A stretch of 64,000 bases of DNA from positions 4,640,001-4,704,000 of the forward strand of contig OZ245838.1 in NCBI GenBank assembly GCA_965228735.1. The letters run 5' to 3'. Each line of letters starts with the position of its first letter. Positions within the stretch are counted from its first letter, which is position 1. The stretch is from Planctomycetota bacterium (GTDB lineage: Bacteria; Planctomycetota; UBA1135; UBA2386). Positions 1 through 12,874 of the stretch are shown here, piece by piece. The position numbers and the translations under genes were made by a program. The notes below the pieces were generated by a model that made no database searches, was not told the DNA's origin, and saw only the letters and a program-made list of their open reading frames with translations.

Positions 1-2105
1 CGTGCGAGCCGCGCGAGCGTGACGACGTTGCCGTTGCGGCCCCCGACGACGAACAACGCGTGCGTCAGGTCCGGTTCCTGGGCTGCGGCCGCGTTGATCG
101 GAACGACGAACCGATGCTCACGCTCCGAGGCTCCGGTGAGACGTGCTCGCACGAATCGGGCCAGGCTCCGGATCGACCCGGCTTCGAACAGCGTCGAGAT
201 CGGCAACTCGAGCCCGGTGTGATCCAAGATTCTGGCGAAGACGCCGACCGCGATCAGCGAGTGCCCGCCGGCTTCGACGAAGTCGATGTCCGCATCGACG
301 GGGCGGCCCAGGGCGTCCCGGAACGCCGCCGCGATCACCGTCTCGAGTTCGTCCAGATGCTGAACGCCGTTCGTTGACGGCGTTGCGGGGGAGTCGCGCG
401 CGCTGTCGCGGTCCGCGAGCAGTGCGGCTGGGACGCTCAGCTCGAAGGACCGGTCGAGCGCACCGCCGTGCCTGCTGGTTGCGGATCTGCCCGACGTCGG
501 CTTGGAGGCCGCGCTCTTCGGTGATCGGGTGGCGGGTTCGTTCGTGTCGGGCGTGACCTCGCCAGCCCGGGAAGCGTCCATCTCGAGCGTTCCGTGTTCT
601 GCGATCGTTGCACCCGGCGCGATGGACCGCAGGAAGTCGAGTGCGGGCTCATTGCGATCGGTCTCTTTGTACTCGAGACCGACCTTGCCGAGACCTCGAT
701 CGCGGGCGATGTCACCGAGCCGCTGCAGCATCCGGTGCTCGACTCCCCGTCCGAGCGCGCGGCAACTCAGCAAGAACGTCGGAGCGACAACGGCATCCCC
801 GTTCACCCGGTAGATGACCAGGCCGACGATGCCGTACTCACCGAATCGGTCGCTGGCACCGACGAGGAACCCGCGATCTCCGGAGGCCAGATCGGACTCG
901 AGCTCGTCGACTTTCCGCCGCCGAACGGAGAGGTGGAACTGGTTCGTGCGCAGTGTCAGTTCCGATGCGCGATCCATCCGCTCCGAGTCGATGTCGTGGA
1001 ACGTCAACCGCAGCTCCAGGTTGGCCAGGAACTCGCCGAGCGACGGTGCCGTATCGCGGTTCGCCTCGCGCGACAGATGGGCGCGGTAATACTCGACGCG
1101 GCTGCCGGAGGCCGCATCGTTGCGTAGATCGAACGCCCAATGGTGATCGCAGAATCGCACCATGTCGGCGTCGTTGTCCGGAAACCTCGTGACCGTCACG
1201 CCGGGGCAGTTGGCTTCGACCTCGGCACACTCGACCGGGTTGTCGTCGACGAAGATGAAGCTGTCCGTCCCGAGGCTGAGCTTCTCCCCGATCTCCCGGA
1301 TGTTTTCGGATTTCGGTCGCCAGTTGACCGCGGCGATGGTGACCGAGTCGCGCGGCAGGACCATGTCGTCGCGCTCTGCCCAGACACGCTCGACGTCCTC
1401 GGCAGAGTTCTTGGAGCACAGACCGATGACGACTCCGGACTCGGCCTGCGTGACGAGAAGGCGGTGCAGGGCGAGGTGGCCCTCGGTCAGTTCGATTCCC
1501 GTCGGCCCGACCTCGCCGCAGACGCCACGCCACAGGGTGTTGTCGCAATCGACGATGATGGCCTTGTGCGTTGGCTTGGTCCGCCGGTGCACTGCTCGAG
1601 CGAGTGCGGTGGCCCAGGCCGCATAGCCCGCCGGGGTGAACGGCATGGCACCGATCTTGTCACTCGCCGGGTCGTCGAACCTGGGCGTGGGGTAGGCGGC
1701 CTTGACCTCGTCTTCGACGATCAGGGTCACGTTCGGACTCTGGTCGATCGAGGCGCGCGCCCGTTCGACGATCGAGCCCCATTCGGCAGTGCTCTGACCG
1801 GTGCCGCGGCAGAGCCCCAGAATTGTTGGCGACGGCTGACGGGCCGCGGTCGCGATCAACTCGACAATCTGATCGGGGCCCGAGTCCTGCCAATCCGAGG
1901 GGCGGACGAGCATGGCGTGCAGTCGGTCCTCGGCGTCAGGCCGGGCTGCGGACGCGAGCAGGGTCTGGAACACCTGCCCGAACCCGTCTTCCTCGACTGC
2001 CCAGGGCATGCCGAGAGCCGTCGCCCAATGGGCGAGCAGTTCGCGGATCGGTTGCACCGAGAAGGTGCCACCGACGACGACGGTGAGTTGCTGCGGAGAC
2101 GACAA
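1..2105 (-). CDS. FkbH-family (HAD-IIIC glyceryl transferase/phosphatase)-ACP-thioesterase multidomain protein; 3' end runs off the window
   Basis: Absent from the ORF track because there is no stop in the window. Manual translation from a TTG at 2105 gives LSSPQQLTVVGGTFSVQPIRELL..., the FkbH motif HKAIIVDCDNTLW (~1530-1568), the carrier motif DFVEAGGHSL (~255-285), and a TE-like start FVVPIN...LFVVGGRNGNV at the edge. These segments share one frame. The start codon is uncertain. Confidence 0.85.
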   Translation of the reverse strand, partial: MSSPQQLTVVVGGTFSVQPIRELLAHWATALGMPWAVEEDGFGQVFQTLLASAARPDAEDRLHAMLVRPSDWQDSGPDQIVELIATAARQPSPTILGLCRGTGQSTAEWGSIVERARASIDQSPNVTLIVEDEVKAAYPTPRFDDPASDKIGAMPFTPAGYAAWATALARAVHRRTKPTHKAIIVDCDNTLWRGVCGEVGPTGIELTEGHLALHRLLVTQAESGVVIGLCSKNSAEDVERVWAERDDMVLPRDSVTIAAVNWRPKSENIREIGEKLSLGTDSFIFVDDNPVECAEVEANCPGVTVTRFPDNDADMVRFCDHHWAFDLRNDAASGSRVEYYRAHLSREANRDTAPSLGEFLANLELRLTFHDIDSERMDRASELTLRTNQFHLSVRRRKVDELESDLASGDRGFLVGASDRFGEYGIVGLVIYRVNGDAVVAPTFLLSCRALGRGVEHRMLQRLGDIARDRGLGKVGLEYKETDRNEPALDFLRSIAPGATIAEHGTLEMDASRAGEVTPDTNEPATRSPKSAASKPTSGRSATSRHGGALDRSFELSVPAALLADRDSARDSPATPSTNGVQHLDELETVIAAAFRDALGRPVDADIDFVEAGGHSLIAVGVFARILDHTGLELPISTLFEAGSIRSLARFVRARLTGASEREHRFVVPINAAAAQEPDLTHALFVVGGRNGNVVTLARLA

Positions 2106-2354
2106 GATGGGCGAATTCAGGAGCTGGCCGACTATCGGCAACGCATAACTGGGAATTGACTTACGAAGGGTGGTCAGGCTCCCGGGAGGGCCGGGAGCCG
2201 AGCGTGAACGTGGCTTCGCAACGGGGGACCGAGCCGCGGCTCGCGGAGTCGGGCAACGCGGTCCGAGCCGTTGGTCCCGGTGCGAAGGGCGGAATGCGCC
2301 CCGTGACCAGCAGGTCCCGTCGGCGGAACCGCCAGGCCCCGCGGGGGCGAGGAA

Positions 2355-3239
2355 CTAACGGCCCGGCAGCTGGTTTGTTGCAGCAAGAATCGTCGCGGCG
2401 GTTCGTGCGGCCCGAGTACCGGTGTGAGTGTTCGTGATCTTCTGCAGGGCCGCCCGAGCCGTATCGACGGTGCCGCCGGCAGCCGATTCCGTGAGAGCAT
2501 CCCGGAGCGCCTTCTCGGCCGTGATCTCGGCGACGAGTTCCGGCGCCCTCGTCCGCTGCAACAATCCTGCAGCTCTCGCTGCCAGGGTCGAGTTGGCGCC
2601 CGTTCTTTCGATGGCCTCGCAAAGCTCGGTCGCACGAGCGTATGCACCACTCGCCATTGCCTTCTCGGCGAGTCTCATGAGTCGGGCCAGGTCGCGGGCT
2701 CGATCGGCCGTGGTCGCGCGTTGCTCGGCGACGTAGTTCCGCACGGCGGCCATGTCGTCGAGTGGATTGCCCTCCATCACGACCGTGCCTTCGGGGGAGA
2801 GCAGGATGTACGACGGAACCGACTGTCGGTTCATCTCGAAGGGGTAGCCGTTCGTGAAGATCGCCGAGGTCCCGAACCACCCGCGTTCGAGCCCGAGGCG
2901 GAGAACGTCGTCGAGCTCGTGGCGTCGCTCGATCAGGATCGCCTGGAAGTGGTCGTCGAACTGACGCTGCAGATCGAGTGACGCCGGCACGGACGTCGCA
3001 ATGCAATGCCCTCAATTCTTGCCCCAGATCAGGATGAGCACGGGCACGCCGCGCAGGTCTTCGAGCGACCCTACTCCTCGGTCGTGGAACATCGGGCGAG
3101 AGAACTCGTGGCTCAGCCGATCGCCGACGCGGATGGCGCCGGGGCGGTGCGGTTGCCCGCGCGTCTTCTTGTACCAGTAGATTCCCGCGGCAGCCGCCAG
3201 GACGAGAACGGCGACCAGGATGATGCTCGGCGTCTTCAT
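2355..3239 (-). CDS. Thioredoxin-fold (TlpA/redoxin-like) membrane-anchored protein with an in-frame TGA, probably selenocysteine (UxxC)
   Basis: ORFs 3012..3239 and 2355..2990 are in the same frame, joined through TGA (3012-3014): LRGVPVLILIWGKN-U-GHC-IATSVP. There is an N-terminal hydrophobic anchor and a later VPSYILLSPEGTVV cis-Pro motif. The ATG overlaps the upstream deacetylase stop (ATGA). Confidence 0.75.
2980..2997 (-). promoter_or_regulatory. Candidate bacterial SECIS hairpin
   Basis: Stem-loop GACGUC-CGUGCC-GGCGUC whose apical loop starts 20 nt after the UGA and has G at its second position. Confidence 0.55.
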
Positions 3240-4303
3240 CGTCGGAGTAACTCACGGAAGCGGCACACCTCGGCCCGGAAGCCGGCTGAGTCGTGTTCGT
3301 CGTCTCGAACGACGGTGCGTTGCATTGTGATGGCGATGCGAGTCAGGTTGATCGGATTCGTATCGCGCTGGTTCATGCCGCCGTCACGAAAACCGGCGTA
3401 GCGGTAACCAGCCGCTCGAACGGCGGCCTCGACCCGCGCGTCCGAGTCGCCATTGGGGTAACACAGGCCGGAGACCGGCTTGTGGGTCCACTCTGCGAGC
3501 TGAGCAGCAGATTGGCGCAGCTCATGATCGAGGTCCGCGTCGTTCAGCAGCGGCAGAATCGGATGCGTCACCGAGTGCGAGCCGATCTCGTGGCCGCCGC
3601 GATCGAGCTCGATTACCTGCTCGGGAGTCATGGGGCGGCACAACGTGGCGTCGAAGGTGCCGCTGGCGACCGCCTGGGCCCGTTCGACGAACTCCATTCG
3701 CCGGGCTCCGGGGAGCGCCTTGAGGCTGTCGGTCCACGCCTGGCCGGTTGGAGGCTGCCCGTCGGCGGTAGCGGCCGAGGATTCACGCCGGACGGACCGA
3801 AGCAATTCGACCTGATCCTCGCGCGACAGCCGATCCCAGACGAATGCCGCCCGGTCGAACCACAACGCCTGGCCCGATTTCACGAAGTCGCTCGTGACGT
3901 AGAAGGTCCCTCGAACACCGTGCTTCTCGAGGATCGGAGCGGCTAGCGCGTGGTTGTCCCAATAGCCGTCGTCGAAGCTGATGGCGAGCAAGGGGCGACT
4001 CGCGGGACGGCCGTTCGCGAGTTCGTCCATGGCTTCTACGACCGGCAGAACCTCACAGTGCGACGCGAGCCACTCGACCTGGGCGTCGAACGAGTTCTGC
4101 GGAATCACCAGGCTCGCGAGCGGGTAATCGCGGCAATCCTCGAGCGGCAGCACGCGGTGATACATGAGGATCGTCAATCCGCGGCGCATTCGCCGTTCCA
4201 TCAGGCGCATCAATCCGGTCAGTTCGGCGACGCGGTCGATCCCCGAACGCAAGCGATGCTTGAAGGTGCGGGCGAGGCCAGGGGACTCGACGGCGGACGT
4301 CAT
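3236..4303 (-). CDS. Polysaccharide deacetylase (CE4/NodB family)
   Basis: Motifs ILMYHRV, ISFDDGYWD, EIGSHSVTHP and CYPNG. Start MTSAVES overlaps the upstream GT2 stop. Confidence 0.92.
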   Translation of the reverse strand: MTSAVESPGLARTFKHRLRSGIDRVAELTGLMRLMERRMRRGLTILMYHRVLPLEDCRDYPLASLVIPQNSFDAQVEWLASHCEVLPVVEAMDELANGRPASRPLLAISFDDGYWDNHALAAPILEKHGVRGTFYVTSDFVKSGQALWFDRAAFVWDRLSREDQVELLRSVRRESSAATADGQPPTGQAWTDSLKALPGARRMEFVERAQAVASGTFDATLCRPMTPEQVIELDRGGHEIGSHSVTHPILPLLNDADLDHELRQSAAQLAEWTHKPVSGLCYPNGDSDARVEAAVRAAGYRYAGFRDGGMNQRDTNPINLTRIAITMQRTVVRDDEHDSAGFRAEVCRFRELLRR

Positions 4304-5229
4304 CACTTTGCCAAGGCCTCGGTCCGAGTCCGCTGTGGTGATCGCAGGATTGGCGCCCGGAGTCGGTCGCGAAAGCGGTTGTCGCCGCGCCCGGTGAGTC
4401 GTTTCACCAACGACCGTACGCCAACGACGGTGACTTCCGCGCAGTCCGCGAACGCCGCGGCGACGACGCCGAAGTGCTTGCGCAGGTAGTAGAACCGACT
4501 CTCGTAGTAGTGCTTCGAGATGTCTTGCCCGTGCATCGTCTCGTTGGTCTTGGCGGTGCTCGCTCCTGCGAGGTGCGAGGCCACGGCTGCGCCCGTGACC
4601 CACAGCTCGTGACCGGCCTCGCACACGCGGCGACAGAGATCGGTCTCCTCGAAGTACAGGAAGAACCGTGGATCGAATCCGCCGAGCGCGACCATGACGT
4701 CACGACGCGCGAGCAGCACTGCACCGCACAGCCAGTCGGTCCGACGTGGGGCGGACCCCGGTGGGACCGGCTCACTGGGTGGGATCCTCCACCCCGCGGC
4801 GGCGGCAATGACGCGCCATGGAGTCGGCAAGGGATGGATCTTCTGGGCGGAACCGTTCGGATTGAGGATCGCCGGCGCCACGATGGCGGCCTGCGGGTGC
4901 TGCTCCAAGTGCTCCTGCAAGATCGCGAGTGCCGGCAAGGGCAGGACGGCGTCGGGGTTCAGGAACAGCACGTAGTCACCCTCGGCCATCGCCAGGCCGA
5001 TGTTGCACCCTCGACCGAAGCCGACGTTCTCCTTGCTCGCCACGACATCGACCCAGGGGAATCGCGATTCGACGGAGCCGGCCGTGTCGTCCGTACTCGC
5101 GTTGTCCACGACGATGACGCGCACCGTGCCTGCAGCTTGCCCGTCCGCGAGCGCCTCGAGCGCCGCGTCGACCGTGCCGGCTGAGTTGTACGTCACGATG
5201 ACGACCGTGATCGGGGCGCTGCGACTCAT
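4303..5229 (-). CDS. Glycosyltransferase family 2
   Basis: Motifs VVIVTYNS, VVDNASTD, NVGFGRGCN, LFLNPD and GFDPRFFLYFEETDLC. Confidence 0.93.
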   Translation of the reverse strand: MSRSAPITVVIVTYNSAGTVDAALEALADGQAAGTVRVIVVDNASTDDTAGSVESRFPWVDVVASKENVGFGRGCNIGLAMAEGDYVLFLNPDAVLPLPALAILQEHLEQHPQAAIVAPAILNPNGSAQKIHPLPTPWRVIAAAAGWRIPPSEPVPPGSAPRRTDWLCGAVLLARRDVMVALGGFDPRFFLYFEETDLCRRVCEAGHELWVTGAAVASHLAGASTAKTNETMHGQDISKHYYESRFYYLRKHFGVVAAAFADCAEVTVVGVRSLVKRLTGRGDNRFRDRLRAPILRSPQRTRTEALAK

Positions 5230-6245
5230 GACCGACCGAACAGTTTCTCGGGGAGCGTGGGGTAGGCCCCGCCGGTCTTGTAGCGGAAGAACGTCATCGA
5301 CTCCGGTGCCGCGATACGGGTGAGCTGGTAGGGGTCGGAGGCCGACGTGATCTGACGTCGGGCGCCCGACGCAACGGCAGAACTCAGCCCGGCGGCCTCG
5401 ACGAGATTCCGGCCGTCGGCGTCCGACCGACCATAGGGGAACGAGAAGTGAGCGGGTTCGTAGCCGAGCTCGCGACGGAACTCGTCGCAGCACGTGGTGA
5501 CCTCGTGGTCTCGCACCGCCGAATCCGCGTTCTGCAGGTCGCAGTGATCGGAGGTGTGTACGCCCAGCTCCATCAGGTCGTAGTCGTCGCGCAGTCGTCG
5601 AGCCTCGTCCCAGTTCATCGTCAGCCTGGGTCCGGTCTCCCGTGGCTGCAGCTGTTCCGTGAGGGTGGCCAGCAGGGCCTGACGCTGATCGAGGTTTCCG
5701 AGGATCATCGCCGAGTTGATCTCGGCACGGGCGCTTCGCTCGACGGGCCCGTGGTCGAGGCGAATCGGCGTATTGCGACCAGGCAGCGCCAGGTCCTCGC
5801 GGCTGCGGGTCCGGAAGATCGTGTGGACGCGGTCGACCCACTGATTCTCGCCGCGGCCCACGTATCCCGTACAGAGGTAGAGCAACGCTGGCAGTCCGAG
5901 CTCCGCGAGAATCGGCGCGGCGACCTCCAGGTTGTCGAGGTAACCATCGTCGAGAGTGACGACGACCGTTCCTGCTGGTGGTTCTTCGCCCTTCCGGATC
6001 GTTGCGACGAGGTCGCTGAGACCGATCACGCGACGGTGTCGCGCGAGGAACGTCATCTGTCGACGGAACAAGTTGGCGTCGATCGTGTTGGAAGGATCGT
6101 GCCAGCTACGCCGCTCCGGCGTGGAGACGCTGTGATACATCAGGATCACGGCGCCGACCGGCGACGCGGCGCGAACGTAGATCCAGGACAGGCCGCTCAG
6201 GTAGAGCCCCGCGTGCAGACCTTGCAAGACTCGTTGCTTCAACAC
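5226..6245 (-). CDS. Polysaccharide deacetylase (CE4/NodB family), second copy
   Basis: Motifs ILMYHSV, VTLDDGYLDN, LGVHTSDH and FSFPYG. Confidence 0.92.
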   Translation of the reverse strand: MLKQRVLQGLHAGLYLSGLSWIYVRAASPVGAVILMYHSVSTPERRSWHDPSNTIDANLFRRQMTFLARHRRVIGLSDLVATIRKGEEPPAGTVVVTLDDGYLDNLEVAAPILAELGLPALLYLCTGYVGRGENQWVDRVHTIFRTRSREDLALPGRNTPIRLDHGPVERSARAEINSAMILGNLDQRQALLATLTEQLQPRETGPRLTMNWDEARRLRDDYDLMELGVHTSDHCDLQNADSAVRDHEVTTCCDEFRRELGYEPAHFSFPYGRSDADGRNLVEAAGLSSAVASGARRQITSASDPYQLTRIAAPESMTFFRYKTGGAYPTLPEKLFGRS

Positions 6246-6302
6246 GGAGGAGATCGGTGCTCAGAGGCAGGCGGTTCGAGGTCGAGCGAAAGGGAGCGGC
6301 GA

Positions 6303-7025
6303 TCAGAAGTTCCCCACGGGGAAGGCGATCGGCAGCGGCAGGTTCTGGCGGATGTACTTGTCGACCCAGACGTTGATCTTGTCGATCATGTTGTTCGGGA
6401 CGTAGATCACGTCGTGCGGTTGGAGGAACACTGGTGTGCCGTCCACCCAGTTGTCGAGTCCGGCATCGAACTGCCAGACCTGGTGCCTTCGTTCGACTGG
6501 GAGCCAGCGGATCAGCATCGCTTCTTCGAGGAGTGCGGATCCCTTGACCGGCCCTCCGGCGCGTCCGATGGCCTCCAGGAAGGTAAGCTCACCGCGCCCG
6601 AACGCGACGACGCCCGGTATGTTGACCTCGCCGATCACCGTGACTTCGCGCGGCGCCGGGTCGATGATGTCGACGGACACGGTGCCCGCGCCCACCTCGC
6701 TCTGGTTGGCGTAGGCTTCGCTGACCTTGGCGCCGAGCGCCCCGACGGATAGTCCCACCAGCTGGAGCTCGCCCACGAACGTGAACGTCGCGCGGCCGTC
6801 GTCGCGCACGATGGTTTGGTGGTCCCACTCCGGCTTCTGCGGGAACCGCACACCGATCGTATCACCCGCGACGACGAACGCCTGTGGGGAGAGCGTCGCG
6901 TTGATGTCGGGAGCAACGGCACGCAAGGCCGGGAACGAGCAGCCACTGGCCAGAGTCAACGCCAGGAGTCCGAGAACTCGGCCCCCTGCTCGACGTGCCA
7001 ACGAATCACGGTTGCTCTCACGCAT
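6303..7025 (-). CDS. Polysaccharide export lipoprotein (Wza/OPX family)
   Basis: Lipobox LASGC; polysaccharide-export motif GDTIGV...VRDDGRATFTFVGEL; SLBB motifs VIGEVNIPG, AIGRAGG and LQPHDVIYVP. Confidence 0.9.
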   Translation of the reverse strand: MRESNRDSLARRAGGRVLGLLALTLASGCSFPALRAVAPDINATLSPQAFVVAGDTIGVRFPQKPEWDHQTIVRDDGRATFTFVGELQLVGLSVGALGAKVSEAYANQSEVGAGTVSVDIIDPAPREVTVIGEVNIPGVVAFGRGELTFLEAIGRAGGPVKGSALLEEAMLIRWLPVERRHQVWQFDAGLDNWVDGTPVFLQPHDVIYVPNNMIDKINVWVDKYIRQNLPLPIAFPVGNF

Positions 7026-7086
7026 CGGTCGTCGAGCATACCCCGCGTCGTGCTCGGCACACAGCGAACCCGCGCCCCGGCGGGCA

Positions 7087-7992
7087 CTACGAATCGGCGC
7101 GGGGAGTCGTTCGCGCTTCTCTGCCCGCGAGCCGTTCTGCCACCGTCCGGAGCTGACAAAGGTCGCGCGGCCGCGCCAGGCGGGAAACGCGGACGGAGCG
7201 CGCCAGTGCCACGCAGCTCTGCATCAGCGATTCGGGGCCGCTGACGCCGCTGAGAAGTTCGGGGAAGTACGAGTGCCGCAGCAACGCGACGCCCGCGGTG
7301 AGTCCGCGGAGCGGCGTCGGTTCGACGCTTCCGGTCGAACTCAGAACGTAGACGTGGCGCAGCCGGACCGGGCTGTCGGCACAGGATTCCGCGGGTACCC
7401 TGGCGACGCGCTTCTCGGGGCGGTCGCCGGGGCCGATGGGCCGGTTGTCCGGTACGACCTCACGGGTGGCCACCGGTCCGGGTGCGACCATTGGCTCGGT
7501 AGCCGTGGGGTCGATTGCCGCGATGTCGTCCGTCACGAACCGGCAGCCGAATTCGACCATGAGCCTGGCCAGCGTCGACTTGCCGACCCCGGAATCGCCA
7601 GCGAACGCGATGCCGGCCATCGTCGCGGGCTGCGCGACGCAGCTCGCGTGCAGGCAGAAGAATCCGCGTTGTTGCAGGAGCAGCCCCATGGCGGGGCCGG
7701 CGATGAACTGTGCGAGGTCCTGACTCGGCTCGACGTCTACGCCGGATGGCGTCACGGTGATCGATCGCCCGTCACGGACGCGCAGCGCGCCGACCCCGGC
7801 GCGCACGATCGTCGAGTCCTGCGGCGACAGCCGGTGCCAGTCGCCGCTGTGATCGGGCGGCGCAGCCCCGTCGGCAGGGAGTGACGAGGTTTCGATCGTG
7901 ACGTCCGTTGCGTCACGCGAGGATTCCGGCCGCAGGCTGGGGAGCGGTACTTCCGAACGGATGGACAGTCCGTATGCGCGGTATGTCGGCAC
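7087..7992 (-). CDS. HPr-kinase-related lasso peptide kinase (PadeK/PsmK-like)
   Basis: LHAS motif, Walker A GDSGVGKST and VTDD motif. Lies immediately downstream of the lasso precursor. Confidence 0.85.
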   Translation of the reverse strand: MPTYRAYGLSIRSEVPLPSLRPESSRDATDVTIETSSLPADGAAPPDHSGDWHRLSPQDSTIVRAGVGALRVRDGRSITVTPSGVDVEPSQDLAQFIAGPAMGLLLQQRGFFCLHASCVAQPATMAGIAFAGDSGVGKSTLARLMVEFGCRFVTDDIAAIDPTATEPMVAPGPVATREVVPDNRPIGPGDRPEKRVARVPAESCADSPVRLRHVYVLSSTGSVEPTPLRGLTAGVALLRHSYFPELLSGVSGPESLMQSCVALARSVRVSRLARPRDLCQLRTVAERLAGREARTTPRADS

Positions 7993-8010
7993 GGACGAAC
8001 TGCCTCAACG

Positions 8011-8026
8011 ACCGAGCGCGCTCGGT
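8011..8026. other. Perfect 16-bp palindrome between precursor and kinase (possible mRNA-stabilising stem-loop)
   Basis: ACCGAGCGCGCTCGGT is its own reverse complement. Confidence 0.45.
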
Positions 8027-8066
8027 TGAACTCGAACGGTCCTGGGCAGAGCCAGCTGGCCGAGCG

Positions 8067-8237
8067 TTAGCTCGAGCCCGGGTTCGCCCACGGGTTCCAA
8101 CCCGATCCCTGGCCGTTGAAGAATTCGCCCCAGCGGCCGCCAATCCATTGCGTGAGTTCTTCGACTCGGCCTTGGACTTCGATGGATGGCGTTTCGTAGG
8201 TGCGGTCGGTGTCGTTGGAGTGAGTCTGATCGTTCAT
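8067..8237 (-). CDS. Lasso peptide precursor (56 aa: 30-aa leader and 26-aa core WIGGRWGEFFNGQGSGWNPWANPGSS)
   Basis: Sequence MNDQTHSNDTDRTYETPSIEVQGRVEELTQ|WIGGRWGE... has the YxxPxI RRE motif, G-x-V-x-x-L-T with Thr at -2, Glu at core position 8, and a C-terminal Ser. It is flanked by the cyclase and kinase. Confidence 0.9.
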   Translation of the reverse strand: MNDQTHSNDTDRTYETPSIEVQGRVEELTQWIGGRWGEFFNGQGSGWNPWANPGSS

Positions 8238-8343
8238 CAGAGAGCTAACCAGGGTAGAAGGGTCTGGCGCAGGGGCCATCAGAAGATACCCCAGCAACGG
8301 GGTGTGGGAAGGGGGGTTGCGCCTTTTCTTCGAGCGCCTCGGC

Positions 8344-10209
8344 TCAGCGCGAGCGGACCCAGAATCCGAGCAAGACGCCGAGCCAGAGCGCCATTCCGTC
8401 GGACTCCGCGATGCCACCGGGGGGTAGCGCCAGGATTCGGCGGAGTGCCCCGAGGTCCACGAACTCATCGAGGCCCGGAGAGTTGCGGAGTAGCGAATCG
8501 ATACGATCTCGGTCTGCGACCAGGAATCCCTGCTCGAACTGGTCACCCCAATGTGACTTGTGAACGCGAGTCCGGATTGCCTCGGGAACGATCCCGCGCA
8601 AGGCCCGGCGCTGGATGGCTCGATCGTAGCCGCCATGGAGTCGTTGCTCGGGTGGCAGCCCGTAGCAGAATTCGATCAGCCGGTGGTCGAAGTAGGGGTG
8701 CCGGTGATCGAGCCCGAACGCCGCGCTCGCCTTGTCGTGGACCTCGAGCGAGTGCGCGATCAGCGGGGTCGTCAGGGCGCGGTGGTGGGCCTCGCGCAAG
8801 CTTCGGGGCGGGCGGTTCGCCTCGACGACCGCCTGGCGATCTCGCATTCGGGCGGTCCAGTCGACTTCACGCGCAAAGCCGGGCGCGATGCTCGATGGCA
8901 CGGCCCCGAGTTCTCGTCGCCAGGAGCGGGTCACGGAACGGACCACCGGCGCGAGTCCGAAGTGCCAGAAGAACCGCTTCGTCGACTGCCGAAACACGCC
9001 GGCGAGTTGCCGGCACTCGCGCACGGCGCGAACGATGCGGCCGCGGCGCACGAGTTCGGCGAGCCAATCCGTGCCGTGACTGACGGTCGTGTCGCCATCG
9101 ACGCCGTCGATGACGGCTCGGATCCCGAGTTCGCGGGCGCGCCGGGCGAGTGACCAATAGACGTAGAGGTTGGGCGCGCAGAACGGTTCTTCGACCCGTT
9201 CGAGCATGGCGTCCACCTCGCGCAAGGGGCTCGTGCTGCTCGCCGAGACGAACTCTGCCGGCCACGGCTCGTTCGGTTCGTCGTCGCCGTTCGCCGCGAG
9301 GACCAGGTCGATGTACTGCCGCTCGTCGATCCGCGGGAAGTCGGGGAACAGCGCCGACAGCGTCGTGATCGGATGCGCTCCCCAGGCTTTCCGATTCGCG
9401 TGCGCGAGCCGGACCAGGCCTGACGAATCCAGGCCGCCGCTCAGCAGGATCGCCGTCGGCTCGTCGCGGTGCAGGCGGCAGCGGAGCGCTTCCGTGAGCG
9501 TGTCGCGGAAGCGCTCGGCATAGCTCTGGTCATTGGCCAGCTCGACGCGGTGATCCGGGTCGAGCGCCCAGTAGCGGCGCAGGGACTCCCCGCTCTCGCG
9601 GACGGTCAGGGAATGGCCGGGTGGCAGCCGTCGAACGTGCTCGTAGAACGTGCGGTCGTGGTCGGCGAATACCTGGCCGAGGTAGTCCGCGATCTTGCCG
9701 TTGTCGAGATCACGCGGCACGTCGGCGGCGTCGAGCAGCGGGCCGATCTCCGATGCGAAGACGAAACGCTCGGGCGCGAGGTGGTAGTAGAACGGGCGCG
9801 TTCCGAGGCGGTCTCGCGCGCAGAACAGCTGACGCTCGAGGGATGACCAGATGGCAACCACGAAGTCACCGAACAGGTGCTCGGGGCAGCTCTCACCCCA
9901 GCGTTCATAGGCCCGCAAGACGATGTCGGCGGGGGTCGCATCGGCCGGGGCGTCGAGTTCGGCTGCGAGGTCCGAGAGGTTGTCGATGCGGGCCGCGATC
10001 GCGGCGATTCGACCGTTGCGCTGCGCGATCGCGGCCTCGGACCCGGTCGGGGCGAGCACGCCGAACGCCGCGCCGGCCGTGTTCGTCGCGAGGCGAGCTG
10101 CGCCGCGATGCGCCATCCGACCGGCCATTGCGGCAATTCGGTCCCGGTCGAGGGGGCGTTCGTCCCGTTGCCAGGCTCCAACGAGCCCGCTGCTGATGAT
10201 CCCGATCAT
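8344..10209 (-). CDS. Lasso peptide cyclase (asparagine synthetase-like C protein)
   Basis: Motifs ARDRLGTRPFYY, FASEIGPL, LPPGH, PP-loop LLSGGLDSS, DGVDGD and RHPYFDHRLIEF. The N-terminal catalytic Cys of AsnB (CGI) is replaced by SGLVG. Confidence 0.92.
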   Translation of the reverse strand: MIGIISSGLVGAWQRDERPLDRDRIAAMAGRMAHRGAARLATNTAGAAFGVLAPTGSEAAIAQRNGRIAAIAARIDNLSDLAAELDAPADATPADIVLRAYERWGESCPEHLFGDFVVAIWSSLERQLFCARDRLGTRPFYYHLAPERFVFASEIGPLLDAADVPRDLDNGKIADYLGQVFADHDRTFYEHVRRLPPGHSLTVRESGESLRRYWALDPDHRVELANDQSYAERFRDTLTEALRCRLHRDEPTAILLSGGLDSSGLVRLAHANRKAWGAHPITTLSALFPDFPRIDERQYIDLVLAANGDDEPNEPWPAEFVSASSTSPLREVDAMLERVEEPFCAPNLYVYWSLARRARELGIRAVIDGVDGDTTVSHGTDWLAELVRRGRIVRAVRECRQLAGVFRQSTKRFFWHFGLAPVVRSVTRSWRRELGAVPSSIAPGFAREVDWTARMRDRQAVVEANRPPRSLREAHHRALTTPLIAHSLEVHDKASAAFGLDHRHPYFDHRLIEFCYGLPPEQRLHGGYDRAIQRRALRGIVPEAIRTRVHKSHWGDQFEQGFLVADRDRIDSLLRNSPGLDEFVDLGALRRILALPPGGIAESDGMALWLGVLLGFWVRSR

Positions 10210-10323
10210 GGAAACGTCGCGCCCCGGAGGACAGCGGCCGGAGCATACTGGCCGATGTTGCGTTACGCTTCCCGGGCCTTGCCGAGGGAAGTTCGGCACA
10301 TGTGGGTCGACCCGACGCAGCGC

Positions 10324-10623
10324 ATGACAGGAGACATCGGACTCAACTCGGTCGTTCGAGCAAACATTCGTCAGCTTTCGGTCGAGATCGACGGCGAGAC
10401 CGTCCTGCTCAACTTCGACGACGGATTCTACTACTCGATCAACTCGGTCGGAGCGCGGATCTGGACGCTGGTCCAGGACGCGACCCGAGTGTGCGACGTG
10501 AAGGCGGCGTTGCTTTCGGAGTTCGACGTCGACTCGGCCAGATGCGAGGCCGACCTGCTGGCGCTGCTCGCCGACCTCGAGGCGAAGAACCTCATCGAGG
10601 TACTCGATGCGGATCCTGCGTAG
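10324..10623 (+). CDS. PqqD-family RiPP recognition element (lasso B1/E protein)
   Basis: 99 aa: EIDGETVLLNFDDGFYYSINSVGARIWTLV...EFDVDSARCEADLLALLADLEAKNLI, a typical PqqD pattern. Confidence 0.92.
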   Translation: MTGDIGLNSVVRANIRQLSVEIDGETVLLNFDDGFYYSINSVGARIWTLVQDATRVCDVKAALLSEFDVDSARCEADLLALLADLEAKNLIEVLDADPA

Positions 10624-11053
10624 GTTCTGGCGGCTGTCGTTCTCCGAGAAGCTGATGCTCGGCAAGGCGTGGGGGTTGCTCGCCGTCGTGCGAAGCAGCA
10701 TGTGGATCGCGGGGTTCGCGCGGACCAAGCGCTGGGTCGATCGTCGACACGCGCGCGTGGAACGACTCGTGCGGTCGCGCCAGGAGCCGCATCGGATCGC
10801 CCGAATGGTCGAGATCGCGAGTCACTTCTTCCCTGGCGGTCGGCATTGCCTGAGTCGGGCGATGGTGCTCGAGGTGCTGCTGCGCCGCCGCGGCTACGAC
10901 GCCAAACTGGAGATCGGTGTCGCGTTGGCGGATGCACCCGTCCAGAGCGGGTCACGGCTCTCGGCGCACGCCTGGGTCACGCACGGTGACCGGATCCTTC
11001 TCGGTGGAGCCGAGGCTCCCGACTTCAAGCGGTTGACGCGGTCGGGTCGGTGA
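10607..11053 (+). CDS. Lasso peptide leader peptidase (B2, transglutaminase-like)
   Basis: Catalytic Cys in HCLSRA, the IGV motif, and His in AHAWV. Overlaps the RRE gene. Confidence 0.92.
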   Translation: MRILRRFWRLSFSEKLMLGKAWGLLAVVRSSMWIAGFARTKRWVDRRHARVERLVRSRQEPHRIARMVEIASHFFPGGRHCLSRAMVLEVLLRRRGYDAKLEIGVALADAPVQSGSRLSAHAWVTHGDRILLGGAEAPDFKRLTRSGR

Positions 11054-12051
11054 CTCGTTCGACGGACAGCTTCTCCGCGGCGGACGCGCCGCCTCGCATC
11101 CGCGTCACCGCGCTGCAGAAGCGCTACCCGCGGAACCGCAATCTGCTGCGGTTCCTGCGCGCGCCGCATCGCCGCGACTACACGATGGCGCTCCGTGGGG
11201 TCGATCTCGTGATCCCGCAGGGCGGCATCTACGCGCTCCTCGGCCCCAACGGCGCTGGCAAGACGACGCTACTGAAAGCGCTCTCGGGTCTGCTCCTGGC
11301 CAACTCTGGCACGATCGAGATCGATGGCATCGACCTGACGAACGAGCCGCGGAAGTTGCGCAATCGCGTCGCGCTGGCCGTGTGCGACGAACGTTCGTTC
11401 TACTGGCGCATCAGCGGCCGCGAGAACCTGCGGTTCTACGCGACGCTCAACGGGCTCGAGGGCGCGGCGCGCGATCGCCGGATCGATGAATGCCTCGCGA
11501 TGGTGCGGTTGGGGTCGGCTGGCGATCGGCGCTACATGGAGTACTCGGCGGGCATGCGGCAGAGCCTCGCGCTGGCGCGCGGGCTGTTGCTCGATCCGCC
11601 GATCCTCCTCATGGACGAGCCAACGCGGTCGCTCGACCCCGAGGCCACGGCGGCGGTCCACGATGTGATCACCGGGTTGCAGGCTGCCGATCCGAGCCGC
11701 GTGTTCTTCTACTCGACCCATGACCTGGCCGAGGCGGAATCGATCTCGAGTGATGTCATCGTGCTGCGGGGCGGGCGCATCGTGATGCAGCGGAGCCTCG
11801 CTCGCGAGGCCGGCTACGTCTACCGCGTGCGCACCCATCCCGAGCTGCCCGAGAGATTGCTCGACGACATCGACGGGCTGCAGGTGCTGGGCAGCTCGGA
11901 AGCCGGCACGGTCGTCGAGTTCGCCGAGTTCCGGACGCTCGATGCGGTGCTCGCGCGGCTCGCCGAGCGTCGTTTGCAGGTGCGCGAGGTCGCAGAGCAG
12001 CGGTCGCGGCTCGGCGAACTGTATCGCTCGAGCGCGGAGGCGCAGCGATGA
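11050..12051 (+). CDS. ABC transporter ATP-binding protein (likely lasso exporter)
   Basis: Motifs GPNGAGKTT, YSAGMRQ, LLMDEPT and STHD. Overlaps the B2 stop (GTGA). Confidence 0.92.
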   Translation: MTRSTDSFSAADAPPRIRVTALQKRYPRNRNLLRFLRAPHRRDYTMALRGVDLVIPQGGIYALLGPNGAGKTTLLKALSGLLLANSGTIEIDGIDLTNEPRKLRNRVALAVCDERSFYWRISGRENLRFYATLNGLEGAARDRRIDECLAMVRLGSAGDRRYMEYSAGMRQSLALARGLLLDPPILLMDEPTRSLDPEATAAVHDVITGLQAADPSRVFFYSTHDLAEAESISSDVIVLRGGRIVMQRSLAREAGYVYRVRTHPELPERLLDDIDGLQVLGSSEAGTVVEFAEFRTLDAVLARLAERRLQVREVAEQRSRLGELYRSSAEAQR

Positions 12052-12863
12052 GTCTGCCACGCACGGCTGTCGCGTTCCTGCGGCGCGAGTTCCTCGAAGA
12101 GGCGTCCTACCCGCTCAAGGTCGTGTTCGGGTTCGGCGCGGCGATCGTGAGTATCGGGTTCCTCGTAATCTTCGCCGACTTCGTCGGCGCCACGATGGCC
12201 GGCAGCGGTGAAGGGCGAATGGCACACGGCTACCTGCCGTTCGCGCTCGTCGGACTGAGCTTCCACACGCTGCTCGATACCGCTTTGCGCGAACTGAGCT
12301 CGCGGATTCGCCGGGCGCAGATGCAGGGCACGTTCGAGGCGCTGCTCGCGACGAGCACGCCGCTGCCCGTGCTCATGCTCGCGCTGCCGCTCTACCCGTT
12401 GCTGCGGACGTGCTCGCGATTCGTGTTGCTGCTCTTGTTCGGGTGGCTCGTCCTGGATGTGCCGCTCAGCTTCGGCAACTGGCCCGTCGTGCTCGTGGCG
12501 TTCGGGCTTGCCGTGACCGTCTTCACGGCGATCGGTCTCGTGTTCGCCGGCCTCACGGTCGTGTTCAAGCAGACCGAGCCGCTGATCGCCGTCTTCAACG
12601 CGTCGTGTTTCTTCCTCGGTGGCGTGATCGTGCCGTCGGGTGAGTTGCCCGCGGTGCTGCAATGGGTCGGCGTGCTGTTGCCGATCACCCCGGCGCTCGA
12701 GGCGTTCCGGATCGCTGCGATCGATGGTGGCGACTTCGCGGCTGCAGGGCCGGTGCTCGGACAACTGGCCGTCTTCGCGGTCGTCCTCGTGCCGTTCAGC
12801 GTCGTCGTGTTCCGCTGGTCGATTCGGCAGGCGCTTCGCGACGGCAGCCTCGGGCACTACTGA
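12048..12863 (+). CDS. ABC-2 type transporter permease
   Basis: Multiple hydrophobic segments, GTFEALLAT and LPAVLQWVGVLLPIT. Translationally coupled to the ATPase. Confidence 0.9.
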   Translation: MSLPRTAVAFLRREFLEEASYPLKVVFGFGAAIVSIGFLVIFADFVGATMAGSGEGRMAHGYLPFALVGLSFHTLLDTALRELSSRIRRAQMQGTFEALLATSTPLPVLMLALPLYPLLRTCSRFVLLLLFGWLVLDVPLSFGNWPVVLVAFGLAVTVFTAIGLVFAGLTVVFKQTEPLIAVFNASCFFLGGVIVPSGELPAVLQWVGVLLPITPALEAFRIAAIDGGDFAAAGPVLGQLAVFAVVLVPFSVVVFRWSIRQALRDGSLGHY

Positions 12864-12874
12864 CCGGTCGCGCC

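Follow-up and report, generated by a model that had tools for sequence, protein, structure and literature searches.

In the chemistry of the thioredoxin-fold reductases ResA and TlpA, a nucleophilic residue attacks the oxidised client and a second Cys then resolves the bond. A thioredoxin domain can also be followed by a helical-repeat-like domain, as in the chaperedoxin CnoX (YbbN), which is cytoplasmic. Among bacterial selenoproteins, the catalogue of PMC13188914 includes UxxC proteins of the cd02966, PF08534 and PF00578 type. The legend to Fig. 2 of the same paper gives the geometry of the bacterial SECIS as a loop of 3-9 nt, a stem of 4-16 bp, a G in loop positions 1-2 and a spacing of 16-37 nt; the published energy criterion is <= -7.5 kcal/mol. 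Sec machinery and six putative selenoproteins were reported for one planctomycete genome (PMC4807772). The BSepDB top ten in Table 2 of PMC13326102 have 46 to 63 selenoprotein genes and include no Planctomycetota, and the string 'Planctomyc-' is absent from the main text of that paper.

In this study, we analysed a window of 64,000 nucleotides, positions 4640001-4704000 of the single 7.19-Mb contig (69% GC) of a Planctomycetota bacterium, hereafter G000. The assignment to this phylum agrees with the named homologues, which come from it, and with one planctomycete 16S probe motif that matches the genome twice; four of the six 16S probe or primer motifs tried had no match. A preliminary description had proposed that this window contains a selenoprotein of the UxxC thioredoxin-fold class whose frame is interrupted by a TGA. 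The window gene resembles the catalogued UxxC redoxins: in a redoxin fold, a predicted Sec stands in for the first Cys of CxxC, and a SECIS directly follows the UGA. Unlike them, it encodes a further, helical domain at the C-terminal end and an anchor-like N-terminus, and its motif is W-G-x-x-U-x-x-C-x3-V-P, with no match to PF08534 or PF00578. It shares with the exported reductases ResA, TlpA and CcmG (DsbE) the fold (Z 14-16 over ~135 residues), the position of the active site, the conserved proline and the N-terminal hydrophobic helix. It differs from them in having Sec for Cys, an identity of 12-20% and an additional helical domain; its scanned neighbours include no cytochrome c maturation genes. 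The order of domains is that of CnoX, and Foldseek lists 3qou (E 3e-4); however, the whole-length TM-score to 3qou is 0.25 with an rmsd of 22.9, and the window protein combines a thioredoxin domain of the longer, TlpA type with an N-terminus resembling that of exported proteins. The window motif, WGKNUGHC, matches neither of the NCBIfam models WAxxUGC (NF041054) and VPGUxxT (NF041382), which match 3/20 and 5/20 relatives weakly (best E about 1e-5 and 1e-6). An uncurated Planctomycetota family of TlpA-plus-helical proteins (MBL8896837.1, a Cys form; MDA0372704.1, a truncated fragment) is homologous over both domains and has the same UxxC position and the same hairpin. In contrast to this family, ~50 residues of the helical domain are missing from the window protein and its orthologue, whose hydrophobic N-terminus is longer and has KK after it; the two proteins lie on a long branch, and their genes are located in a polysaccharide/lasso island.

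Results

The internal TGA and its reading

The features of the locus are listed in Table 1. The minus-strand frame from the ATG at 3239 to the TAA at 2355 has 294 codons with a single internal TGA, at which translation with table 11 divides it into ORFs of 75 and 211 aa. Translation with the TGA as Sec bore out the earlier statement that these two ORFs are one frame, and the region reads VLILIWGKN-U-GHC (U-G-H-C). The TGA had also been placed at the first Cys of a TlpA-type CxxC, and the homologues agree. In 44 loci, the codon aligned to codon 76 was TGA in 36 and TGC in three, and was not parsed in five; the window gene is one of the 36 Sec loci, and one species contributes two records to them. 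The homologues continue beyond this position rather than ending there. The three Cys-form genomes still carry selA, so their genes use Cys in Sec-competent hosts.

Table 1. Coordinates of the selenoprotein gene and associated features in the window
Feature	Position	Strand	Basis or remark
Whole selenoprotein gene	2355..3239	(-)	294 aa if the TGA is read as Sec; homologues match on either side of the TGA
In-frame TGA, codon 76	3012..3014	(-)	Predicted Sec, first position of UxxC
ATGA overlap that couples the start codon to the polysaccharide deacetylase stop upstream	3236..3239	(-)	Sequence; deacetylase is PF01522
SECIS-like hairpin, 6-bp stem, loop CGUGCC	2980..2997	(-)	Covariation
N-terminal hydrophobic helix, residues 4-26, then KKTR	3162..3230	(-)	Helix in model; predicted signal or anchor
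TlpA/ResA-like thioredoxin domain, residues 32-178	2706..3146	(-)	Structural and profile matches
Cys79, predicted resolving cysteine	3003..3005	(-)	Invariant in 20/20 aligned proteins
Pro142, at the cis-proline position of the thioredoxin fold	2814..2816	(-)	Invariant in 20/20; aligns with the G-x-P motif in redoxins of known structure
All-helical C-terminal domain, residues 180-289	2373..2702	(-)	~50 residues shorter than in most relatives
Right-hand part of the island, holding the gene	1..12871	.	Flanks adjoin in G001 and G002

The letters of the TGA were identical in contigs of four runs from four studies, with no alternative letter; three of these contigs cover the whole stretch, are near-identical and are possibly related to the source assembly, and the fourth is a 247-nt piece of depth 2.3 from a 2017 coral metagenome. 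The sequencing error that the preliminary description had allowed for is thus not seen in any of these assemblies, of which three may be source-related. TGA is the main stop codon of the genome (1277/1947 long ORFs), which argues against a change of the code, and a genome-wide reassignment of TGA was rejected. A genome-wide scan for the UxxC pattern gave 36 matches with TGA versus 17 with TAG and two with TAA as controls; the pattern by itself is weak evidence for Sec. The internal TGA at codon 76 is very likely decoded as selenocysteine.

The coupling of the ATG to the deacetylase stop, also described earlier, was read in the sequence as an ATGA overlap. The deacetylase start in turn overlaps the stop of a GT2 gene as TGATG. 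No sigma-70 promoter and no minus-strand terminator was found at 2100-8700 of the window. RNA data sets containing the sequence were likewise not found, which is uninformative as to expression.

The hairpin after the UGA

The hairpin GACGUC/CGUGCC/GGCGUC has six pairs, all of them standard, and a loop that starts 20 nt downstream of the UGA. The position, pairs and spacing given in the preliminary description therefore stood, but an excess of folding stability over shuffled sequences was not found. The folding energy of the region is not exceptional (z = +0.17 to +1.13), and 116-173 of 200 shuffles folded equally well. Folding energy was accordingly rejected as proof of a SECIS, and the support for the hairpin comes from comparison, not from stability. 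With its loop of 6 nt (CGUGCC), stem of 6 bp and spacing of 20 nt, the hairpin has the geometry given in PMC13188914. It agrees with four of the five published criteria, and the fifth, energy, varies with the span folded: -6.7 to -6.9 kcal/mol for the 18 nt alone, and -11.4 and -12.8 for spans of 42 and 47 nt.

Covariation was then examined in 18 Sec-form sequences. Over the six pairs, 79.6% of 108 cells are paired and 26 changes are double-sided; none of 500 shuffles was as high and slid registers gave 28-54%, values that are not probabilities, since the structure was taken from one of the 18 sequences and the sequences are related. RNAalifold recovered the same inner four pairs unaided. The inner three pairs are intact in 28/36 Sec loci versus 0/3 Cys loci. 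The loop is CGUGCC in 30 of the 36 Sec loci and GGUGCC in the remaining six. It falls on conserved Val-Pro codons, so the protein accounts for part of the sequence conservation of the hairpin. When the window gene was compared with its orthologue, 5/8 synonymous sites were conserved in the hairpin region and 46/92 in the rest, not a clear excess.

Sec machinery and other selenoprotein candidates of the genome

The preliminary description had named selA, selB, selC and selD as genes to look for, and all four were found in the genome. The scores were 454 bits for selA (curated cut-off 268), 337 for selB (242) and 367 for selD (125). The selD gene itself contains one TGA, and tRNA-Sec (selC) is present. 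We also considered stops flanked on either side by coding-like sequence. A hairpin whose loop is of the CGUG type followed 41/239 TGA, 8/293 TAG and 0/26 TAA; as TGA genes of the same genome had supplied the loop patterns, this comparison is partly circular. Besides SelD and the window gene, we picked by hand 43 TGA read-through candidates, and a Pfam or NCBIfam model spans the TGA in 29 of them. With SelD and the window gene included, the genome has at least 31 well supported selenoprotein genes and up to ~45 candidates, 14 of them without a spanning model. The spanning models comprise peroxiredoxins, TlpA-like proteins, four HMA proteins, MsrA, glutaredoxin, two deiodinase-like and two AhpD-like proteins, an ArsC-like and a SelL-like protein, and a VPGUxxT protein with two Sec.

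Three other candidate families were examined in relatives, and TGA was kept. Four paralogues with the motif GHPLG(C/Q)T-U-(N/G)NG (G000 4855623 (-), 3484699 (+), 6929513 (+) and 7087946 (-)) have no Pfam or NCBIfam match; in 81 genomes 35/36 matches have TGA, with the position checked in 8/10 loci. These paralogues are a candidate for an undescribed selenoprotein family. Exported-looking FG-GAP repeat proteins with the U-C pair W-U-CIGMSPQF (G000 3065085 (+), 406817 (-) and 5872224 (-)) had TGA in 31/31 matches in the 81 genomes, with the position checked in 7/10 loci. A protein similar to cobalamin-independent methionine synthase reads TFM-U-A (G000 1762143 (+)); TGA was found in three loci and TGC in three, with four unparsed, and 4/21 matches have TGA. 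Table 1 of PMC13188914 contains neither the FG-GAP nor the methionine synthase-like proteins. Further TGA candidates read GRLDDEFC-U-S, GDIDGFA-U-S and EAADC-U-S (G000 2546238 (+), 5497385 (+) and 5458926 (+)). The first two may resemble the Sec region of eukaryotic selenoprotein N.

Fold and N-terminus of the protein

The predicted model (pLDDT 91, pTM 0.85) has a helix at 4-26, a thioredoxin fold at 32-178 with the motif starting helix 77-93, and six helices at 180-289. The best structural matches are of the TlpA/ResA/DsbE type (VIA-align to 3gl3_A: Z 16.3, rmsd 2.3, 134 aligned), and profiles match structures of ResA, TlpA and DsbE. These matches, together with the model, support the TlpA-type thioredoxin fold that had been proposed. 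U/C76, C79 and P142 are invariant in 20/20 aligned proteins. The C-terminal helical domain alone gave only generic helical-repeat matches (best Z 8.6, in the uninformative range of the tool); this lack of a specific match does not show a new fold.

At E 0.01, the window protein matched neither a redoxin model of Pfam nor a redoxin NCBIfam. A match to BamD (E 0.006) was far below the family cut-off and was set aside. Of the 20 relatives, 15 match ResA NF002854 and 11 match TlpA NF047696 (best E 1.6e-9), while PF08534 and PF00578 match 14 and 13, respectively.

The best 19-residue hydropathy of the N-terminus is 2.2. One Lys precedes the hydrophobic helix and KKTR follows it, charges that could orient the domain to the cytoplasm. 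The N-termini of the relatives are short hydrophobic stretches which, by eye, often end in A-Q as signal peptides do.

Distribution of the family

The window protein matches 25/61 genomes of relatives and, at E 1e-8, 174/339 genomes of the class, both counts including the source genome. By hand count, 134 of the 150 class matches listed, out of 190, contain TGA. A family profile matches 216/401 genomes of the phylum, a number that may include more distant paralogues. In distant matches of three genomes (G614, contig C1017; G342, C269; G678, C29), a single in-frame TAG was seen rather than a TGA.

A word-based protein search with the window protein found only three downstream fragments. Among the best 150 matches in a 50%-identity library, 86 were short pieces without the motif, nearly all starting just after it; 28 had CxxC by pattern, 36 were long and unmatched by the pattern, and none had U. 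NCBI names the Cys-form homologue 'TlpA family protein disulfide reductase [Planctomycetota bacterium]' and lists fragments of the family as hypothetical proteins. None of the NCBIfam selenoprotein models covers this Planctomycetota family. We found no paper on it in the literature, and a term search of the deep-Sep paper PMC12013277 gave no match; supplements (PMC4807772 Table S9) and the BSepDB data could list members. UxxC redoxins themselves are, as the preliminary description stated, a known selenoprotein class, catalogued in PMC13188914.

The sole close orthologue found, from one species only, is in G304, a genome of another genus (contig C458, 49% identity). It has U-T-H-C, a 7-pair hairpin, an anchor-like N-terminus and the same shortened tail. 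Besides this island copy, G304 has a separate canonical full-length copy of the family. In a quick tree of 46 rows, the island copies group together as a single clade, and its branch is long (support 100, length 1.28). A search of the source genome for a closer copy of the main family at full length found two distant paralogues only, of which one lacks CxxC. This full-length paralogue (G000 about 6,180,000 (-)) reads QFADVFSG in place of the lost CxxC and is probably non-catalytic. We take the window gene to encode a genuine selenoprotein that has escaped annotation. Its class is known and its family uncurated, and it is here a divergent, shortened, island-borne paralogue.

The polysaccharide/lasso island

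The gene is located in an island of 45.6 kb (G000 4,607,220-4,652,871, 66% GC). Two genomes of the same genus (G001 and G002) are without the island, and their flanks adjoin within ~50 bases. The island encodes glycosyltransferases, a flippase, Wza, two deacetylases, a sulfotransferase, an FkbH-like/ACP/thioesterase protein, DUF1839, an HprK-like kinase and a lasso cluster. Directly downstream of the window gene, at 3-2141 (-) and extending beyond the window, is the fusion of an FkbH-like phosphatase, an ACP and a thioesterase, which is also present in G304. The lasso cluster consists of the precursor at 8067-8237 (-) with 7087-7992 and 8344-12863, and includes the HprK-like kinase, a cyclase, PqqD, B2 and an ABC protein. 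The precursor has 56 aa, with a leader ending in LTQ and a core that starts with WIGGRWGE and ends with GSS; the G304 core is near-identical.

The two neighbours of the G304 orthologue have their best matches inside the source-genome island (sulfotransferase 66%, DUF1839 75%). The G304 genes for the FkbH-like protein, lasso proteins, Wza, flippase and deacetylase are on contigs other than that of the orthologue. At the site of the island, the flanks in G304 are only ~1.4 kb apart, so the island is located elsewhere in that genome. Gene order and strand differ between the two islands. In the wider family, 0/88 neighbour ORFs (38 loci, 1.5-kb flanks) matched a polysaccharide-synthesis family, which indicates that the family does not need an island context. 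The polysaccharide/lasso context of the preliminary description is thus real and recurs in one orthologue with context, but it does not recur in the wider family. The link to the island is drawn from two lineages, which may have the island in common through transfer, and two are not enough to tell function from co-transfer.

Discussion

We favour, with moderate confidence, a membrane-tethered, outward-facing oxidoreductase of the TlpA/ResA type that uses Sec and probably keeps cysteines of envelope proteins reduced, these proteins being probably island-encoded. The UGA, the hairpin and selABCD are present in the sequence. SelB would almost certainly bind the CGUG loop, with Sec inserted at position 76. 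In the predicted thioredoxin fold, U76-x-x-C79 would stand at the start of the first long helix. By analogy with TlpA/ResA chemistry, it is likely that the selenolate would attack a disulfide or an oxidised cysteine of the client, that Cys79 would resolve the mixed bond and that a DsbD-type protein would re-reduce the enzyme. A single DsbD_TM match was found in the genome, and its C-terminal thioredoxin-like domain reads FNUGSC, itself a UxxC candidate (G000 4263499, -; the gene spans 4,263,182-4,266,050). The last step could equally go either way: the helical tail may select the client, and the client may belong to the island. The protein is most likely tethered to the inner membrane with its domain predicted to lie outside, and it may have a redox role for the envelope proteins of the island.

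Other explanations were weighed against this one. That the TGA is a nonsense mutation, a sequencing error or a true stop between two genes would fit the splitting of the frame by gene callers and the lack of excess stability in the hairpin. It is hardly credible when the same letters stand in contigs of four studies (three of them near-identical and maybe source-related), when the catalytic position across the class holds TGA, exchanged with TGC only, and when a division into two genes would cut the modelled fold at its active site. Action of the enzyme on the lasso peptide, by forming or reducing a disulfide in it, is nearly as implausible and was rejected: the 56-residue precursor contains no Cys, and the G304 precursor likewise, although the precursor gene is 4.8 kb away and that of G304 is probably within ~9 kb of the orthologue if contigs C489 and C458 adjoin.

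The remaining explanations accept a real selenoprotein. According to the positive-inside rule, basic residues after a helix favour cytoplasmic placement of the domain that follows. The window protein has more basic residues after its hydrophobic helix than before it, and a cytoplasmic location is expected of the FkbH-like/ACP protein encoded next to it and of the lasso enzymes, so the catalytic domain might act inside the cell and reduce island enzymes via the thioredoxin system. We regard this as improbable, given the signal-peptide-like N-termini of the relatives and structural matches that are mostly exported redoxins. A general antioxidant or repair enzyme of the envelope that merely rides in the island, whose position would then be uninformative on the client, is a less remote alternative, which we nevertheless judge unlikely. 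The wider family occurs almost throughout the class, next to unrelated genes, the island copy could substitute for the closer full-length copy not found in the source genome, and the G304 orthologue lies on the strand opposite to both its neighbours, so that the operon link is not conserved. Against this, G304 keeps a canonical copy alongside its island copy, the long branch, shared deletion and changed N-terminus of the island clade suggest specialisation, and the window gene is coupled to the deacetylase by ATGA. The outward-facing oxidoreductase for envelope proteins is the reading that we retain.

A bolder proposal, which we put forward only tentatively and consider possible but doubtful, is a mobile island with its own dedicated selenoenzyme: a specialised paralogue that would use the Sec machinery of the host and service the export or modification proteins of the island, in a planctomycete lineage whose selenoproteomes (~45 genes in this genome, several of undescribed families) would rival the largest catalogued in bacteria.

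The underlying chemistry is of an already known kind. Recognition of the family corrects an annotation error repeated across the phylum, in which short pieces lack the active site (86 of the best 150 representatives). The SECIS of the family covaries strongly in nature and comes with Cys forms as controls, which makes it useful for refining models of the bacterial element. The host genome suggests that Planctomycetota are rich in selenoproteins, and through the island-borne copy a link of selenium-based redox chemistry to the production of exopolysaccharide becomes open to test.
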